A stretch of DNA of 64,000 nt from NCBI GenBank assembly GCA_964547465.1, contig CAZJNI010000001.1, positions 24,205-88,204 on the forward strand. Direction: 5' to 3'. A model generated the notes under the pieces. That model saw only the letters and a program-made list of their open reading frames with translations, ran no database searches and was not told the origin of the DNA. The position numbers and the translations under genes are program-made. Below are positions 3,076-63,665 of the stretch, in pieces. Numbering within the stretch: the first letter of the stretch is position 1; each line of letters begins with the position of its first letter. This DNA is from an uncultured Gammaproteobacteria bacterium (GTDB taxonomy: Bacteria; Patescibacteriota; Microgenomatia; Daviesbacterales; UBA10151).

Positions 3076-3180
3076 ATGACATTTAATATAGTTTTTCTTT
3101 TAGCAATGATAGTTATACTTCTCTTTGGTATTATAGTGTTGATCCTAGCTCACCCAGGTCCTAGAAAAGAAAGACGCTAA
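3076..3180 (+). CDS. 34-aa hydrophobic small peptide (MTFNIVFLLAMIVILLFGIIVLILAHPGPRKERR)
   Basis: AAGGAG Shine-Dalgarno 7 nt upstream of ATG; single transmembrane-like segment. Below the ORF-track size cutoff. Confidence 0.25.
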   Translation: MTFNIVFLLAMIVILLFGIIVLILAHPGPRKERR

Positions 3181-3271
3181 CTTCACCCCTAATCCCTAGA
3201 CCCTAAATTACAAAATGTGGTAAGCCACAACTATCTCTCTTTTAGAGATTAATTGTGGTAAGCTAATTTTA

Positions 3272-19187: not shown

Positions 19188-20594
19188 TCAAGCAGCTTTT
19201 ACTAATTCTTGAGTTTCTTCTTTTTCTTCAGGATTATCTGCCTCAGCTGAGGTACCACAACCAAAAACATAACCGCATCCACATGAAGGTGTATAATCTC
19301 CCGCAGCTCTATTTGATTCATCTTCAAATCTTAAATTACAATCAGGACAATGGTAATGCCCATCCTTAGGCATTCCACAATCTCCACATACCCCACCCAA
19401 ACCCTCCCTACCTAAAGATATCCTTCCTAAACCTAAACTTATCCCTCTGAGTGATGCCATTGAACTTGAACCAGCACATCCTGCTCTGGTCCTTAAAAAA
19501 GCTGCAGCCATCATAAACTTATCCTGATCTCTAATTTGTTCTGAAACCCAACTGTTTTGAGGAGACAACCTATCAAAATATCTATTTGGTGTTTTTTGCA
19601 AATAATCAACTGTGATATTTAGTATTGTTTCCTCTATTATGCTGGCTATTTCAGCTTGGATAATTGAGTGATTTAAATTACTAAACTTTCTCCAAAGATT
19701 ATTTGTTAATTCTTTAATATGCTCTTCTATCTCCTTATTAAAATTCAGAAGCTGATTCATTCTTTGAATATCTGCTCTAGTTTGAGCTACTGATCTTATC
19801 TCTATAGTGCCGTCTTCCTGAACTAATCTAAAGTCAGCATCTCCTCTGATAGAGACAATTTTATCTAACACATATTCTGCAGGATTTTTTAAAGCTTGGG
19901 AGTAAGAAAAAAGAGCTGGGTTCCCAACAATATTAGATACTCTTTCTAACTGAGTCTGACCTGTTAATAAACCTTCAGATACACCAAGACTTTCTGAGAG
20001 TTCTTTTGATTGTCTTTCATCTAAATCTGAAACTAAAGTTAATCCATGCAACTCACCCTGCTGATCAGTCCAGAAAACCATGGTTTGGTTGTTTTTATAA
20101 GTAATTCCTGTTCCATCATTTTTGAAAAACCCGGAATGACCAAATGGACTATTAATAACAGCTATGCTATCAGCATTATTAGAAAGATATCCATCAACTT
20201 TTATTGAGGCCTGTTTAACCCCTCCTTGTCTCTCCTGATCAGTTATCCCATCTACCACCAATATTCCATTATTTCCCACCATTCTTCTGACCCCATTCAC
20301 TCTTTCTATTCTATTTTTATGCGGCAAAACAGTCTTTGACTGGATATATTCCAAAATATAACTTCTGATGTTGGTCTCCAGCTCTCCTAATGAAACTGCC
20401 CAAGCCTCTTCATTGTTTTTTCCTTCTCTTAGATTTTGATTGTAATTTTTAAATAAGCGTTTTATTTCTAAAGGCAGTATAAAACCTGTTCCTTGTAATC
20501 GAGATTGTTCACCTAGGTAAGGAGTTATTTGTACCTCTTGAGGCCTTTCAGTAGGGAAAATTCGGTTGTTTAATGGAAGTACTTCTAATGACAT
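19188..20594 (-). CDS. Hypothetical protein with C-terminal Cys-rich zinc-ribbon
   Basis: CGDCGMPKDGHYHCPDCN...CGCGYVFGCG; AGGAG Shine-Dalgarno 4 nt upstream of the ATG. Confidence 0.5.
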   Translation of the reverse strand: MSLEVLPLNNRIFPTERPQEVQITPYLGEQSRLQGTGFILPLEIKRLFKNYNQNLREGKNNEEAWAVSLGELETNIRSYILEYIQSKTVLPHKNRIERVNGVRRMVGNNGILVVDGITDQERQGGVKQASIKVDGYLSNNADSIAVINSPFGHSGFFKNDGTGITYKNNQTMVFWTDQQGELHGLTLVSDLDERQSKELSESLGVSEGLLTGQTQLERVSNIVGNPALFSYSQALKNPAEYVLDKIVSIRGDADFRLVQEDGTIEIRSVAQTRADIQRMNQLLNFNKEIEEHIKELTNNLWRKFSNLNHSIIQAEIASIIEETILNITVDYLQKTPNRYFDRLSPQNSWVSEQIRDQDKFMMAAAFLRTRAGCAGSSSMASLRGISLGLGRISLGREGLGGVCGDCGMPKDGHYHCPDCNLRFEDESNRAAGDYTPSCGCGYVFGCGTSAEADNPEEKEETQELVKAA

Positions 20595-20917
20595 ATGCTC
20601 CTGTTCACGGGACTAAAAATGTGGTCGGTCTCCTGACTTAAAGTTAGGTTGTAGGTGGTAGGTTTTAGGTTATAGCTCTCTTGCGATCACTACAACCTAC
20701 TCACTACTAGCTACCAACTAGCTAATCACAGTTGCGGCACAGCCCAGGATTTACACCTGGTTCCCATTGTTCCTTTCAGCCAAAGGCTGATGGTACACCA
20801 CACCTTTAAAATAACATCTCAAAACTCAAATGTCAAAACTCAAAACTATAACTCAAATGTTAAAACTTTTAAAGATTTTAGATTTAAGATATAGATTTGA
20901 CATTTGAGATCTAAGAT

Positions 20918-22806: not shown

Positions 22807-24557
22807 AATTAAGTTTATTTAAAAAATCTAAACCTGAAGAATCAACTGTTCCTCAACTAACCATTGAGGATGTAATTGCTCCCGGGGAATTGGAGGTTGA
22901 TTTTAACCATTTAAGAATAGACAACCGCTTTTTTAGAACCTATTTTGTGTCAAATTATCCCAGGTTTGTTGAGCCTAACTGGCTTGAGCCGGTGATTTCT
23001 TTTGACCATTCTCTTTTAATTTCTATGTTTATATATCCTTCCCAATCTGCCGGGGTTTTGGATGAGTTAAAAAGAAAAATTGCCGAAATGGAAGCAACTA
23101 TCCAGACAGACTTTGAAAGAGGCAGGGCAATTGATCCGGCTGTTGAAGTTGCCCTGGAGGATGCCAAAGGACTGCAAGAACAGTTAGTTAAAGGTGTGGA
23201 GAGATTTTTTCAATTTGCTCTTTATATTACAGTTCCTGCTCAAAGCATGGAAGAGCTAAATAATACCTCCAAGCTGATTGAATCTACTTTGGCCTCACTT
23301 TCCATGACTGCCAAAGCTGCCACTTTGCAAATGGAAGACGGTTTTAAATCAACTCTTCCTCAAGGAACAGATCTTTTGAATTTAAATCACAATATGGATA
23401 CCACATCGCTAGCTACTACTTTTCCTTTTGCCTCATCTGAACTAACTGCTAATGAAGGCATCATGTATGGAATCAATGAACACAATGATTCTTTAATTTT
23501 ATTTGACAGGTTCAGTTTAGAGAACGCGAATTCGGTGGTATTTGCCAAAAGCGGAGCTGGCAAGAGCTATTTGGTCAAACTTGAGGCTTTACGTTCTTTG
23601 ATGTTTGGGACAGAAATTATTGTGATAGATCCTGAACAGGAATACCTGCCTTTAACTCAAGCTGTGGGAGGAGAGTTTATTAACTTTTCCGCCTCATCTC
23701 CAATTAAAATAAACCCGTTTGATTTAAACACCAAACTCTCACCCGGAGAAAATGAACTGGGCAGAAAAATTTTATCCTTAACTACTTTTTTAAAGCTGGT
23801 TTTAGGAAATTTGTCTGCCAACGAGGCTGCAATCTTGGATAGATCCTTAAAACAAACATATGCCTTAAAGGGCATAAACGATGATCCTAAAACTCAAGGT
23901 AGGACTCCGCCTTTAATGGAAGATCTGTATAAAGTATTAATCGGCATGGAAGAACCCTCGGCCCTGGAGCTGGCAGCCAGACTGGAAAGATTTGTCAAGG
24001 GTTCTTTGACTGGAATTTTTTCTGCCTATTCAAATGTAGAAATCTCTAATGCCTTTACTGTTTTTTCTGTGCGGGATTTGCCGGACCAACTGCGGCCTTT
24101 AGCCATCCATATGATTTTAGACTATGTCTGGACCAAGATCAGAAGCAGGCTGAAAAAAAGGATTTTAATTGTGGATGAAGCCTGGTATTTAATGAGAAAT
24201 CCTGATTCTGCTGATTTTTTGGTGGATATGGCCAAAAGAGCGCGCAAATATTATTTAGGCCTGACTACCATCACTCAAGATGTGGAGGATTTCCTGACAA
24301 CAGAGCGGGGCAAAGAAATAATTTCTAACTCCTCCATCCAGACTCTTTTAAAACAGGCTCCTGCCTCAATTGATCTTTTGGCGCAAGTTTTTAACCTTTC
24401 TGAAGGGGAGCAAAGATTGCTTTTGTCAGAAGGAGTTGGAGAAGGATTATTTTTTGCCGGCAATACTCATGTTGCCATGAAAGTGGTGGCCTCCCCACAG
24501 GAACATCAACTAATCACCTCAAATCCTAAGGAATTATTGGCCAGGGAAAGTGTTTGA
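22803..24557 (+). CDS. virB4: VirB4/TrbE/TraC-family T4SS ATPase (C-terminal ATPase portion)
   Basis: Walker A FAKSGAGKS, Walker B ILIVDEAW, TTITQD sensor-like motif. Confidence 0.8.
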   Translation: MKLSLFKKSKPEESTVPQLTIEDVIAPGELEVDFNHLRIDNRFFRTYFVSNYPRFVEPNWLEPVISFDHSLLISMFIYPSQSAGVLDELKRKIAEMEATIQTDFERGRAIDPAVEVALEDAKGLQEQLVKGVERFFQFALYITVPAQSMEELNNTSKLIESTLASLSMTAKAATLQMEDGFKSTLPQGTDLLNLNHNMDTTSLATTFPFASSELTANEGIMYGINEHNDSLILFDRFSLENANSVVFAKSGAGKSYLVKLEALRSLMFGTEIIVIDPEQEYLPLTQAVGGEFINFSASSPIKINPFDLNTKLSPGENELGRKILSLTTFLKLVLGNLSANEAAILDRSLKQTYALKGINDDPKTQGRTPPLMEDLYKVLIGMEEPSALELAARLERFVKGSLTGIFSAYSNVEISNAFTVFSVRDLPDQLRPLAIHMILDYVWTKIRSRLKKRILIVDEAWYLMRNPDSADFLVDMAKRARKYYLGLTTITQDVEDFLTTERGKEIISNSSIQTLLKQAPASIDLLAQVFNLSEGEQRLLLSEGVGEGLFFAGNTHVAMKVVASPQEHQLITSNPKELLARESV

Positions 24558-60947: not shown

Positions 60948-61016
60948 ATCAGACGGCTCTTTCAGTATGCCTATAAGTTGTTTTGAATGTCAAGTTACCT
61001 GCCTGCTGGTAGCAGG

Positions 61017-61044
61017 TTGACAAAAATAAGCTTCCTGTTATATA
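61017..61044 (+). promoter_or_regulatory. sigma70-like promoter preceding the candidate ncRNA
   Basis: TTGACA (61017-61022), 16 nt spacer, TATATA (61039-61044); a CCTGCT..AGCAGG palindrome sits just upstream. Confidence 0.45.
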
Positions 61045-61049
61045 GTAGT

Positions 61050-61238
61050 TTTACAATTAAATATTAATCAAGAGTGATGGGGAGACCCATGAAGTAGAAA
61101 TAAATTTCACTTCAGGGCGCGGGATTTGGCCCGATGATCCATCCAGCAACCGACCTGAAAGCACGGTGCTACACCCAAGCCCGCAAGGGAGGATTAGGCT
61201 TTTAGCAAAAATTAACCTCTCTTAGGAGAGGTTTTTTA
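61050..61238 (+). ncRNA. Candidate structured ncRNA or riboswitch-like leader of about 190 nt; family not identified
   Basis: Bounded by a promoter and an intrinsic terminator. GC-rich helices in an AT-rich context (CGGGATTTGGCCCG, CCCGCAAGGG with a GNRA loop). No ORF. Confidence 0.35.
61213..61238 (+). terminator. Rho-independent terminator
   Basis: AACCTCTC-TTA-GGAGAGGTT followed by TTTTT. Confidence 0.6.
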
Positions 61239-61248
61239 ATGGAAACTT

Positions 61249-61470
61249 ATGGCTGAATTTGAAATAAAATTGAAACATGGAATTAAGACAGCGGATCAAG
61301 CAATGGCTAGATTTAAAAGAGTCCGCAGGATAATTGGTGTAAAGAGCAGTCACGGTGAACCTGTTGATGAACTTGTGCCAGAGATAAAGGAATTAGATGA
61401 TTTTTTATCAGCCAATCAACCTGGTTGGAAATCGTATTTAATCAGACTAATTAGAGGAGAAAGGAGGTAA
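61249..61470 (+). CDS. Hypothetical small protein
   Basis: ORF only. Confidence 0.3.
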   Translation: MAEFEIKLKHGIKTADQAMARFKRVRRIIGVKSSHGEPVDELVPEIKELDDFLSANQPGWKSYLIRLIRGERR

Positions 61471-61605
61471 AAATGGGTAGAGAATGTTTAGAACCAGTTA
61501 TACTACCTGAAGGAAATATTCTACCAGAAAATAAACAGTCCTTAAAGCAGCCGCCTGTAAAAGCGGACTTTGATAGTTTGTATAAAGAGTTAAGCAGAAG
61601 ACCAC

Positions 61606-61986
61606 TTGCAGATAAAGTTTATGGGGAGTGGGAGCTTTAATTTAAAAAACCTTAAGTTTCTTCGTTCCAGGAGGCCAGGTTTTTTCTGGAACACAATATT
61701 GCGATTACTTGACAAGTTGTCAAGAAAATGTGGTATAATATTTTATATGACTCAATTAACTGTAGGAGAGTTCAAAGCTAAATTTTCTGAAGTTATACAA
61801 GCGCTTCTTCAAGGCCAGGAAGTTGTAGTATCTTTCGGCAAAAAAAAGGAAAAAATTGGTGTAATGATCCCTTATCAAAGTTACCAGAAGAAAAAAAAGA
61901 TCAAATTAGGCTTGTTAGAAGGTAAGGCTTCAGTTAAATTTGCTAAGGATTTCAAAATGACAATTAATGAATTTCTTGGCCAATGA
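61606..61986 (+). CDS. Phd/YefM-like antitoxin (likely true start about 61747, MTQLTVGEF...)
   Basis: Immediately upstream of the PIN gene with a 4-nt overlap. Promoter TTGACAAGTTGTCAA palindrome plus TGGTATAAT at 61709-61737. Confidence 0.5.
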   Translation: MQIKFMGSGSFNLKNLKFLRSRRPGFFWNTILRLLDKLSRKCGIIFYMTQLTVGEFKAKFSEVIQALLQGQEVVVSFGKKKEKIGVMIPYQSYQKKKKIKLGLLEGKASVKFAKDFKMTINEFLGQ

Positions 61987-62402
61987 ATTATTTATTAGAT
62001 ACACATACTCTTATATGGAGTATTATTTATCCTGATAAACTTTCACCAAAGATAAGAAAAATTATTAAAAGCAAAGATAATACCTTCTGGGTGAGTGCAA
62101 TAGTATTCTGGGAAATTTCCTTAAAATATGCAATCGGTAAACTTGACCTTAAAGGTACTACCCCGGATGAGCTCTACGAATACTCAAATCGTGCCGGTTT
62201 TATAATTTTAGATTTGTCCTCCGCCACGGCTGCTTCGGTTTACAAACTTACAAGATTGGGAAATAAGCAAAGCTTTTCTACGAATAAAGACCCATTTGAT
62301 TTAATGCTTGCCTGGCAAGCCATAACTGGGGATTACATTTTAGTAACAAATGATTCAGGTTTTGCAGGCTATAAAAATTATGGTCTGAAAACAGTCTGGT
62401 AA
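61983..62402 (+). CDS. vapC: PIN-domain toxin VapC
   Basis: MNYLLDTHTLIW..., LVTNDSGF. Confidence 0.75.
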   Translation: MNYLLDTHTLIWSIIYPDKLSPKIRKIIKSKDNTFWVSAIVFWEISLKYAIGKLDLKGTTPDELYEYSNRAGFIILDLSSATAASVYKLTRLGNKQSFSTNKDPFDLMLAWQAITGDYILVTNDSGFAGYKNYGLKTVW

Positions 62403-62408
62403 GTTATT

Positions 62409-63665
62409 TTAAGTTCCTTCGTTCCAGGAGGATAGGTATTTTTCCTGCTCGGAGGTGAGTTTATCTATTTTTATGCCTAATGATTCTAGCTTAAGAGAAG
62501 CAATCATTTGATCCAATTCTTTGGGGATGGTGTGTACGCCAACTTTTAATTTGCCACGGTTTTGAACTAAATATTCTGCAGCCAAAGCCTGGTTAGCAAA
62601 GCTCATATCCATTACATCAGGGGGGTGGCCTTCTGCTGAAGCCAAATTAATTAATCTACCCTCACCTAAAACAAATAGTTTTTTATTCCCCTCCAGGGTA
62701 ATCTCCTCTAAATTTTCTCTTAAGTGTCTTCTGTTTTTAGCCTCCTTAACCAATCCATCATAGTCAAACTCCACATTAAAATGTCCGGTATTGGCTACAA
62801 TCGCCCCATTTTTTAAATTTTTTAAATCAGAAAGGGAAATAACAGATTTATTACCGGTGGCTGTGCAAATAATATCAGCCAGTTTTACAGCTTGCGAGAT
62901 AGGCATGACTTCAAACCCATCCATGGTTGCCTCCAAAGCCCGGGTAGCATCTACCTCTGTAATAATTACCTGGGCTCCCATGCCTTTAGCCCTGGTGGCC
63001 AGGCCCCTGCCGCACCAGCCATAGCCTACCACCACAAATTTCTTGCCTGCCAAAAGCACATTGGTAGCCCGCAATATTCCATCAATGGTTGACTGGCCGG
63101 TGCCGTATCTATTATCAAACATATGCTTGGTGGCACTATCATTTACTGCCATCACCGGAATCTTAAGAGTCCCGTCTTCTAACATGGCCCTTAGCCTTAT
63201 TACACCGGTGGTGGTTTCCTCAGATGAGCCAATTACTTGCTTTAGTTGAGATTTTCTTTCTGTATGAAGTAATGTTACTAAATCCGCCCCGTCATCCATG
63301 GTAATTTGCGGCTTAAAATCCAAAACTTCATTTAAGTGTTTGTAATAAGTGGTGTTATCCTCACCTTTGATGGCAAAAGTTGAAATACCATAATCTTCAA
63401 CCAGTGATGCAGCTACTTCATCCTGGGTGGATAAAGGATTGGAAGCACATAAAGCTAATTCAGCCCCGCCCTCTTTTAAGGCAATCATTAAATTAGCTGT
63501 TTCAGAGGTAACATGTAAGCAAGCTCCTAAAGTGATACCTTTAAGAGGTTTTTCTTTGGCAAAACGCTCATGGATAAGCTGGAGTACTTTCATTTGTGAC
63601 CCAGCCCACTCAATGCGTAGTTTTCCTTTTGCAGCTAAATTTTTATCTTTAATATCAGATTTCAT
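62409..63665 (-). CDS. ahcY: Adenosylhomocysteinase
   Basis: NAD-binding GYGWCGRG motif; conserved AhcY N-terminus. Confidence 0.9.
   Translation of the reverse strand: MKSDIKDKNLAAKGKLRIEWAGSQMKVLQLIHERFAKEKPLKGITLGACLHVTSETANLMIALKEGGAELALCASNPLSTQDEVAASLVEDYGISTFAIKGEDNTTYYKHLNEVLDFKPQITMDDGADLVTLLHTERKSQLKQVIGSSEETTTGVIRLRAMLEDGTLKIPVMAVNDSATKHMFDNRYGTGQSTIDGILRATNVLLAGKKFVVVGYGWCGRGLATRAKGMGAQVIITEVDATRALEATMDGFEVMPISQAVKLADIICTATGNKSVISLSDLKNLKNGAIVANTGHFNVEFDYDGLVKEAKNRRHLRENLEEITLEGNKKLFVLGEGRLINLASAEGHPPDVMDMSFANQALAAEYLVQNRGKLKVGVHTIPKELDQMIASLKLESLGIKIDKLTSEQEKYLSSWNEGT

Follow-up and report, generated by a model that had tools for sequence, protein, structure and literature searches.

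A candidate SAM-I riboswitch with an additional helix at its P2 kink turn in an uncultured Microgenomatia bacterium

Contig CAZJNI010000001.1 of the uncultured bacterium assembly GCA_964547465.1 (deposited as Gammaproteobacteria; GTDB lineage Patescibacteriota, Microgenomatia, Daviesbacterales, UBA10151) carries, within the 64,000-nt stretch analysed here (positions 24,205 to 88,204 of the forward strand, hereafter the window), a compact unit that runs from a promoter to a terminator at 61017–61238. Which kind of RNA is made from this unit, and what does it control? A preliminary description had offered two answers, a free-standing non-coding RNA or a riboswitch-like leader, with a hint of the fluoride riboswitch. 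We herein provide evidence that the leader at 61060–61199 is, by homology to related loci, a member of the SAM-I (S-box) class of S-adenosylmethionine (SAM) riboswitches, a known class with a known mechanism. It most probably acts as a transcriptional OFF switch with the standard S-box logic and an extra helix in P2, a reading in which we place good though not full confidence. The riboswitch-like leader, extending from promoter to terminator, is thereby retained, and both the free-standing RNA and the fluoride hint are given up.

The near-consensus promoter, the structured RNA of about 140 nt and the strong terminator that had been described before were all recovered:

61017–61046, + strand: sigma-70-type promoter, with −35 TTGACA at 61017–61022, an 18-nt spacer and −10 TATAGT at 61041–61046
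61214–61237, + strand: intrinsic terminator, with an 8-bp stem (61214–61221/61226–61233), loop UUAG and six U at 61232–61237

The promoter-like site matches at 11 of 12 positions and was the top site of a 2-kb scan, in which such sites as a class were not enriched (6 found vs 6.3 expected). TTGACA stands at a similar distance from the aptamer in relatives, and the leader transcript would start at about 61053. The terminator sequence is conserved in several related loci, including L030, L067 and L056. GC content reaches 0.46 across the ~140-nt RNA, compared with about 0.36–0.38 in its flanks, and the thermodynamic stability of the leader is only modestly unusual (z = −2.3). As had been claimed, the leader is free of open reading frames (ORFs), none of more than 35 aa overlapping 61047–61238.

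Class assignment of the leader

A comparison with Rfam, which the preliminary description had put forward as a check, gave a divided answer. At gathering thresholds nothing was found at the leader, the sole hit in the window being a cobalamin riboswitch at 20606–20817, while a permissive scan of 60950–61300 returned SAM-I/IV (RF01725) below threshold as the top match (38.6 bits against a gathering score of 41.1, E = 6e-5, 61060–61222). The alignment to this model opens a 57-nt insert where P2 of the model has 3 nt, and the leader was missed at the gathering score because a 37-nt hairpin (61084–61120) is inserted in P2. Membership of SAM-I/IV itself was rejected on account of a P4 inside P1, the presence of a kink-turn (K-turn) signature and the score of 38.6 bits below 41.1. 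No match to the fluoride family (crcB motif) appeared in the permissive scan even at E ≤ 10. A fluoride riboswitch or another non-SAM class would draw only on the short motifs noted at first reading, and these correspond, in a SAM-I aptamer, to the K-turn/P2a strand and the P3 core; contradicted by the SAM-I homology, this explanation has in our judgement a negligible probability.

That homology rests on relatives of the locus, for which contigs encoding homologs of the neighbouring phosphorylase were fetched and a metagenome scan with a J3/4–P4–P1 pattern was added. The divergent neighbour is an alpha-glucan phosphorylase whose best named homolog comes from Candidatus Daviesbacteria (59% identity), from which the host was judged to be a Microgenomates-like member of the Candidate Phyla Radiation (CPR). 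In L024, where the phosphorylase is 76% identical, the same aptamer recurs with hardly a base changed, apart from 37 nt of P2 that it lacks (...GAUGGGGA followed by GGGAAUUGGCCCAAUGAUCCAUCC...); it matches the Rfam SAM family RF00162, and the contig ends within it. L030 and L033 (phosphorylase 58% identical) stand at the RF00162 gathering score (44.9 vs 44.4) and have the same terminator (AACCUCUCU...AGAGAGGUUUUUU), controlling metA (PF04204). To these the metagenome scan added 31 aptamers, of which about 22 were distinct. Rfam was run on 19 loci from uncultivated Microgenomates-like bacteria (16 from the pattern scan together with L066, L067 and L069), 17 of which matched RF00162, 10 at or above the gathering score. 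Genes downstream of the lineage's aptamers include metA and those for homocysteine S-methyltransferase, MetK, MetE-like halves, an MTHFR-like protein and a Cys/Met pyridoxal phosphate (PLP) enzyme; the remainder are small ORFs that have no Pfam match.

The covariation analysis that had been called for supports the structure across 26–27 lineage sequences. Pair counts were made on 26 aligned sequences, with 36 nt of the window insertion cut out because MAFFT misplaced the 5' half of the window when the insertion was left in; a model-based realignment of 27 full sequences gave the same pair statistics. The SAM-I structure is 92–93% paired in these sets (92.9% for 26), compared with 25–52% in slid controls. 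Six pairs, located in P1, P2a, P2b, P3 and the pseudoknot, have changes on both sides among the 26 sequences, and the covariation score was reached by none of 500 shuffles. A covariance model of the lineage, R1, placed the aptamer at 61060–61199 in the intact window with 75.9 bits (E = 1.5e-21), its only hit in the 64 kb, a score that is partly circular because the window core was in the training alignment, with the insertion mostly removed (36 nt cut, one extra G left).

The helices of the window aptamer were read from the sequence by eye, with K-turn naming according to PMC4316175. P1–P4 can all be drawn at 61064–61197, P4 is enclosed by P1, and R1 aligns end to end:

61060–61199, + strand: SAM-I (S-box) aptamer, whole extent as matched by R1
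61064–61069, + strand: P1 5' strand UUAAUC, pairing with GAUUAG at 61192–61197
61192–61197, + strand: P1 3' strand GAUUAG, read from the sequence, with pair counts on relatives
61070–61074, + strand: J1/2 AAGAG (conserved), within AUCAAGAG at 61067–61074
61076–61083, + strand: P2a 5' strand GAUGG (61076–61080), then the non-bulged K-turn strand G61081 (3n), G61082 (2n) and A61083 (1n)
61084–61120, + strand: 37-nt insertion, the proposed T helix, GACCCAUGAAGUAGAAAUAAAUUUCACUUCAGGGCGC, extra relative to L024 and L067
61121–61132, + strand: P2b (C helix), GGG 61121–61123 with CCC 61130–61132, loop AUUUGG
61133–61138, + strand: bulged K-turn strand, loop GAU 61133–61135, then G1b 61136, A2b 61137 and U3b 61138
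61139–61143, + strand: P2a 3' strand CCAUC, read from the sequence
G61081–U61138, G61082–A61137 and A61083–G61136, + strand: predicted K-turn pairs, read from the sequence
61126–61129 with 61175–61178, + strand: pseudoknot of UUGG in the P2 loop with CCAA in J3/4
61145–61170, + strand: P3, AGC-A-ACCG ... CGGU-GCU with an 11-nt loop, holding the GCAACC/GGUGC core
61171–61179, + strand: J3/4, with CCAA 61175–61178 as pseudoknot partner of the P2 loop
61180–61189, + strand: P4, CCC-GCAA-GGG, inside P1, giving a four-way SAM-I junction and not the SAM-I/IV layout

Conservation extends to the ligand pocket (AUCAAGAG at 61067–61074, GCAACC at 61146–61151 and GGUGC at 61165–61169) and to each of the helices. 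Four inner pairs of P1 are kept in 26–27 of 27 relatives, P2a shows compensatory changes from AU to GC and from GC to AU, and P2b shows one from AU to GC. All cells of P3 are paired, with a distal pair that varies among GC, CG and UA, and the pseudoknot is 100% paired in relatives, one of its pairs being compensatory (UA to CG in L046 and L051). The GC-rich elements quoted in the preliminary description fall into this fold, CGGGATTTGGCCCG as P2b with the pseudoknot loop and CCCGCAAGGG as P4 with its GCAA loop; GATGATCCATCC, taken for a hairpin at the time, is instead the bulged K-turn strand together with the P2a 3' strand.

Proposed switching between terminator and antiterminator

Besides the terminator, four further features at the 3' side of the leader bear on how it would switch:

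61185–61223, + strand: antiterminator, in which AAGGGAGG (61185–61192) pairs with CCUCUCUU (61216–61223)
61239–61256, + strand: 5-codon mini-ORF (ATG GAA ACT TAT GGC TGA), 7 nt after GGAGAGG and overlapping the start of the 73-aa ORF
61249–61470, + strand: 73-aa ORF, the proposed regulated gene, of a rare small-protein family
61473–61640, + strand: 55-aa ORF, with no homolog found in any related locus and of uncertain coding status

AAGGGAGG takes in the 3' arm of P4 plus the initial G of the P1 3' strand, CCUCUCUU is the terminator 5' arm, and the antiterminator and terminator pairings are mutually exclusive. The 8-bp antiterminator is the minimum-energy fold of 61171–61224 (−11.0 kcal/mol), and the full sequence prefers the terminator. 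The antiterminator complementarity is present in most relatives and tracks the terminator sequence changes in L036, L045 and L049.

Under the proposed mechanism, transcription from the 61017–61046 promoter would start at about 61053, and the nascent RNA would fold into the four-way-junction aptamer at 61060–61199, to which SAM would presumably bind. At high SAM, the ligand in the P1/P3/J1-2 core would lock P1 and P4, making AAGGGAGG unavailable, so that the terminator hairpin (61214–61233) forms and polymerase stops at the U tract (61232–61237). At low SAM, AAGGGAGG would pair with CCUCUCUU and allow read-through into the 73-aa ORF and probably the 55-aa ORF, which is probably co-transcribed with it. 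With the extra helix, P2 would contain a three-way k-junction in place of a simple K-turn, and the added arm would be directed away from the ligand pocket. On this reading the window riboswitch would regulate in vivo.

The terminator 3' arm, GGAGAGG, had also been read as a Shine-Dalgarno sequence. This applies to several relatives, in which an ATG follows 7–9 nt after it; the 73-aa ORF of the window starts 17 nt after it. In L067, the ATG equivalent to the start of the window's mini-ORF is in frame with the ORF. An ATG 7–9 nt past the terminator arm suggests combined transcriptional and translational control in these relatives, as far as sequence can tell.

The inserted P2 helix

The 37-nt insertion fills the interval between the K-turn adenine A1n (A61083) and P2b, adjoining both. 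It forms a hairpin of 14 pairs with a G61084–C61118 closing pair and a UAAA loop, followed by a 2-nt GC connector (61119–61120). Its folding energy is −12.9 kcal/mol (z = −4.5), a stability that none of 300 shuffles attained, and when the P2 domain (61074–61144) is folded alone, the minimum-free-energy structure joins P2a, the new helix and P2b in a three-way junction. As for a repeat or mobile element, no second copy was found in the window even with 3 mismatches, nor any in the fetched loci.

K-junctions are known from TPP (thiamine pyrophosphate) riboswitches, DUF-3268 and Haloarcula marismortui rRNA through work of the Lilley laboratory (PMC4005666; PMC10573300), and their third helix sits at the K-turn where the window insertion lies (PMC4005666). 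SAM-I has been described with a simple standard K-turn (PMC4316175). In the window, the hairpin at 61084–61118 comes directly after A61083 and is followed by GC and the C helix, which is the position of the third helix in k-junctions (PMC4005666; PMC10573300), and the same holds for a second locus, L069. If it folds as known k-junctions do, the window P2 would be kinked, with the T helix coaxial on the C helix and with cross-strand A-minor hydrogen bonds.

L069 (JGI Ga0496755_001297) was found via the protein route, and R1 gives its aptamer, at 1875–2087, a score of 65.8 bits. In this aptamer a 74-nt hairpin occupies precisely the site of the window insertion, and the two insertions have the same base (G-CCCC-AUG ... 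GGGG-C-GC, then GGGAAUUGGCCU) and the same 2-nt GC connector. The distal part in L069 is unrelated to that of the window and longer (z = −3.6), and its P2 domain likewise folds as a three-way junction. The close relative L040 is without the insertion, as are L024 and 25 other relatives in comparison with the window. The extra helix thus appears, from the aligned loci, to be common to at least two diverged sequences, each with a sister lacking it, which implies that it was precisely lost more than once, or else gained or transferred more than once.

Searches for further cases were negative within their scope. The literature on SAM-I together with k-junctions or Patescibacteria gave no description of a SAM-I variant with a k-junction. 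A pattern scan for an enlarged AAGAG-to-GGCCC distance, in a genome collection that did not include the window's own genome, returned 21 hits, none with an insertion at the window site; most were either ordinary SAM-I aptamers that a TCAAGAG happens to precede or sequence of an unrelated kind. In one of them, L013 (Gastranaerophilales), an extra ~45 nt follows a possible AAGAG. Scanning viral contigs with the T-helix/P2b junction sequence gave 49 hits, about the chance estimate, none of which matches R1.

Does the insertion elaborate the riboswitch or break it? In the latter case, a chance 37-nt hairpin would have disrupted the K-turn of a decaying or inactivated SAM-I element, leaving the pseudoknot undocked and SAM unsensed, with a constitutive attenuator or constitutive read-through as the outcome. 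Such decay would agree with the absence of the insertion from the closest ortholog, L024, and the 25 other relatives, with an alternative hairpin that competes with P2a, and with the state of the locus in L029 (Candidatus Daviesbacteria GCA_016176415.1, JACOXH010000010.1, 7734–7793, − strand). There, only P3-3'/J3-4/P4/P1-3' and the terminator are left, a relic of the orthologous SAM-I riboswitch. The relic is followed by an unrelated 109-aa hypothetical ORF, unlike the metA behind the L030 aptamer, and then by convergent ahcY and pfkB, which is the gene order of the window. Nor does the window contain metA. Since L030 has metA at the corresponding place, a remnant was sought, and tblastn gave nothing better than E of about 5 anywhere in the window. 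On the other side, the core nucleotides and the helices outside the insertion are all intact, and the aptamer has stayed nearly identical to that of L024 in spite of a diverged promoter region and a neighbouring protein with no more than 76% identity. Furthermore, the insertion lies at the K-turn position where known RNAs have a third helix (PMC4005666), L069 keeps a same-base hairpin at the same site with aptamer and terminator intact, and the ORF behind the terminator, itself intact, comes from a family with a link to SAM-I aptamers. We therefore consider decay unlikely, while leaving it a real share of the probability.

Several points nevertheless weigh against a functional OFF switch with an extra helix. 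The helix is found in only 2 of about 29 lineage aptamers, and for this reason its covariation rests on two sequences. In the presence of the insertion, the P2a 5' strand can be drawn into a competing hairpin, AUGGG-GAGA-CCCAU, by which the SAM-I-constrained fold (−37.6 kcal/mol) becomes 1.4 kcal/mol worse than the unconstrained one, in energies that leave out tertiary contacts and ligand binding. P1 is short, with 5 Watson-Crick pairs and one G-U, and the partial circularity of the R1 score belongs here as well. The lineage also leaves riboswitch relics behind, the 5' half of the L029 aptamer being gone, and a broken OFF switch would give only constitutive expression, which the cell might perhaps tolerate.

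Insertions at other places were observed in the same clade. L037 (=L060), L041 (=L059) and L043, three distinct lineage aptamers, have a 20–60-nt hairpin inside the P1 5' strand, just 5' of AAUCAAGAG (for example CCGUGGGA...UCCUGCGG), and many others have long P3 extensions, suggesting a clade that tolerates insertions at several peripheral sites. One contig with a lineage SAM-I aptamer, L042, also bears a sub-threshold cyclic di-GMP riboswitch (c-di-GMP-I-GGC, 54.2 bits against a gathering score of 59) at 3137–3217 on the + strand.

The proposed regulated gene, its neighbours and known systems

The 73-aa ORF had no Pfam hit, a word-indexed search returned only the ORF itself, and exact-sequence look-ups of it and of AhcY gave no contig. 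Only when 1.84 billion representative proteins were searched exhaustively with HMMER did relatives come to light, two in number (E about 1e-9, 47–52% identity), and a profile search of 5.8 billion proteins gathered 9 clusters for the family in all. Its conserved positions are F22, R27, P38, L49, D50, L53, W60 and the motif RFKR.RR. Judging from these matches, the protein family to which the ORF belongs is genuine, though very rare. AlphaFold predicts a helical hairpin (predicted local distance difference test 73.6), for which no Foldseek match in the PDB was better than E of about 1.5. One relative bears the tentative JGI label "YlbF-family regulator". In L067, L069 and L040 a family member comes immediately after a SAM-I aptamer with its terminator, and in L066 and L052/L063 members lie further along an operon headed by the riboswitch; counting the window, the family stands behind a SAM-I aptamer in all six loci whose upstream region is available.

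This linkage bears on a further explanation, in which the leader, terminated at ~185 nt, works chiefly in trans as a small RNA that depends on SAM, and the downstream small ORFs are incidental. This would resemble SreA and SreB of Listeria, which are riboswitch-derived small RNAs. The compact promoter-to-terminator unit and a 55-aa ORF with no homolog would suit it, but no target came up, though none was looked for, a conserved 73-aa ORF that stands repeatedly behind SAM-I aptamers is the signature of cis control, and we regard action in trans as very improbable.

Convergent to the riboswitch unit lies ahcY, in the window (62409–63665 and beyond, − strand), L029, L043, L048/L065 and L060, accompanied by a pfkB-like kinase in the window and L029. 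The arrangement could be simple clustering of methyl-cycle genes, or it could give room for antisense interference. The latter would make the riboswitch read-through an antisense RNA against the convergent ahcY-pfkB operon. An S-box-controlled antisense RNA is known from the ubiG operon of Clostridium acetobutylicum. The recurrence of the convergent order speaks for this explanation, and yet it may merely reflect gene clustering; in addition, ~1.2 kb separates terminator and ahcY, containing two ORFs, a hairpin with T's and a Phd/VapC pair that has an apparent promoter. Antisense control is accordingly rated very low, slightly below even action in trans.

The hairpin followed by T's lies at about 61655–61690, ahead of the Phd/VapC pair, and a near-consensus TTGACA-17-TATAAT, read from the sequence and absent from the promoter-scan list, stands at about 61710–61738. 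The preliminary description had taken GGAGAGG as a Shine-Dalgarno-like sequence for the pair as well; since the pair lies behind the hairpin with a T run and has its own apparent promoter between the small ORFs and itself, it probably does not belong to the unit. The pair itself, a Phd-like antitoxin (weak Pfam match) and a PIN/VapC toxin, occupies 61747–62402 (+ strand), between the riboswitch unit and ahcY. Toxin-antitoxin genes near the same spot in relatives are different ones (PemK and a PIN/Phd pair in L030, MazE/Fic in L029).

In L035, L043, L047, L048, L051, L053, L055, L056, L061 and L066, the first ORF after the aptamer is small (about 90–180 aa) with no Pfam match, and at least one further family recurs among them, the 104-aa protein of L056 and the 106-aa protein of L066 being alike by eye. 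Elsewhere in the window, the cobalamin riboswitch at 20606–20817 (RF00174, 61.8 bits, − strand) lies upstream of a 468-aa ORF (19188–20594, − strand) that has no Pfam match.

Taken together, these observations lead us to a broader proposal, held tentatively and at somewhat less than even chances. Microgenomates-like bacteria of the Candidate Phyla Radiation (CPR) may possess a SAM-I subclass in which a third helix of variable length converts the P2 K-turn into a k-junction with SAM sensing kept, and which, along with relatives that have no such helix, would put a CPR-specific family of helical proteins of ~60–80 aa under SAM control. If true, this family would be an unrecognised component of methionine/SAM physiology in reduced CPR genomes, and the riboswitch would mark this otherwise unannotatable family, together with several other small ORFs of the relatives, as belonging to the SAM/methionine regulon of these bacteria. 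Should the fold be confirmed, it would be the first SAM-I riboswitch, within the literature searched, with a K-turn turned into a k-junction, and the sister pairs with and without the extra helix (the window vs L024/L067, L069 vs L040) would offer a natural experiment on K-turn elaboration. Because the SAM-I riboswitches of this clade lie at or below the Rfam threshold, with insertions in P2, P3 or P1 pushing members under it, the riboswitch content of ultrasmall uncultivated bacteria is under-counted.

Compared with known systems, the window element shares its ligand-binding core with SAM-I/IV (RF01725), the best-scoring Rfam model. In SAM-I/IV, P4 lies outside P1 and there is no K-turn, whereas the window element has P4 (CCC-GCAA-GGG) inside P1 and the K-turn signature.

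With k-junctions it has in common the tandem G-A/A-G signature and a 2-nt connector on the non-bulged strand beside the extra helix (PMC4005666; PMC10573300), and it differs from the known cases in belonging to a SAM-I riboswitch and in having no bulge between G1b and A2b.

The closest system is SAM-I itself (RF00162), with which the window element shares the four-way junction P1–P4, J1/2 AAGAG, the P3 GCAACC/GGUGC core, the P2 K-turn signature (GA ... GAUGA), the P2-loop/J3-4 pseudoknot and the terminator/antiterminator platform. The genes under the control of its orthologs are metA, metK, metE-like and homocysteine methyltransferase genes. The window copy departs from this class in a 37-nt helix in the non-bulged K-turn strand, in a score below the Rfam gathering thresholds, and in its proposed target, a 73-aa protein with no assigned function in place of a methionine or SAM enzyme.

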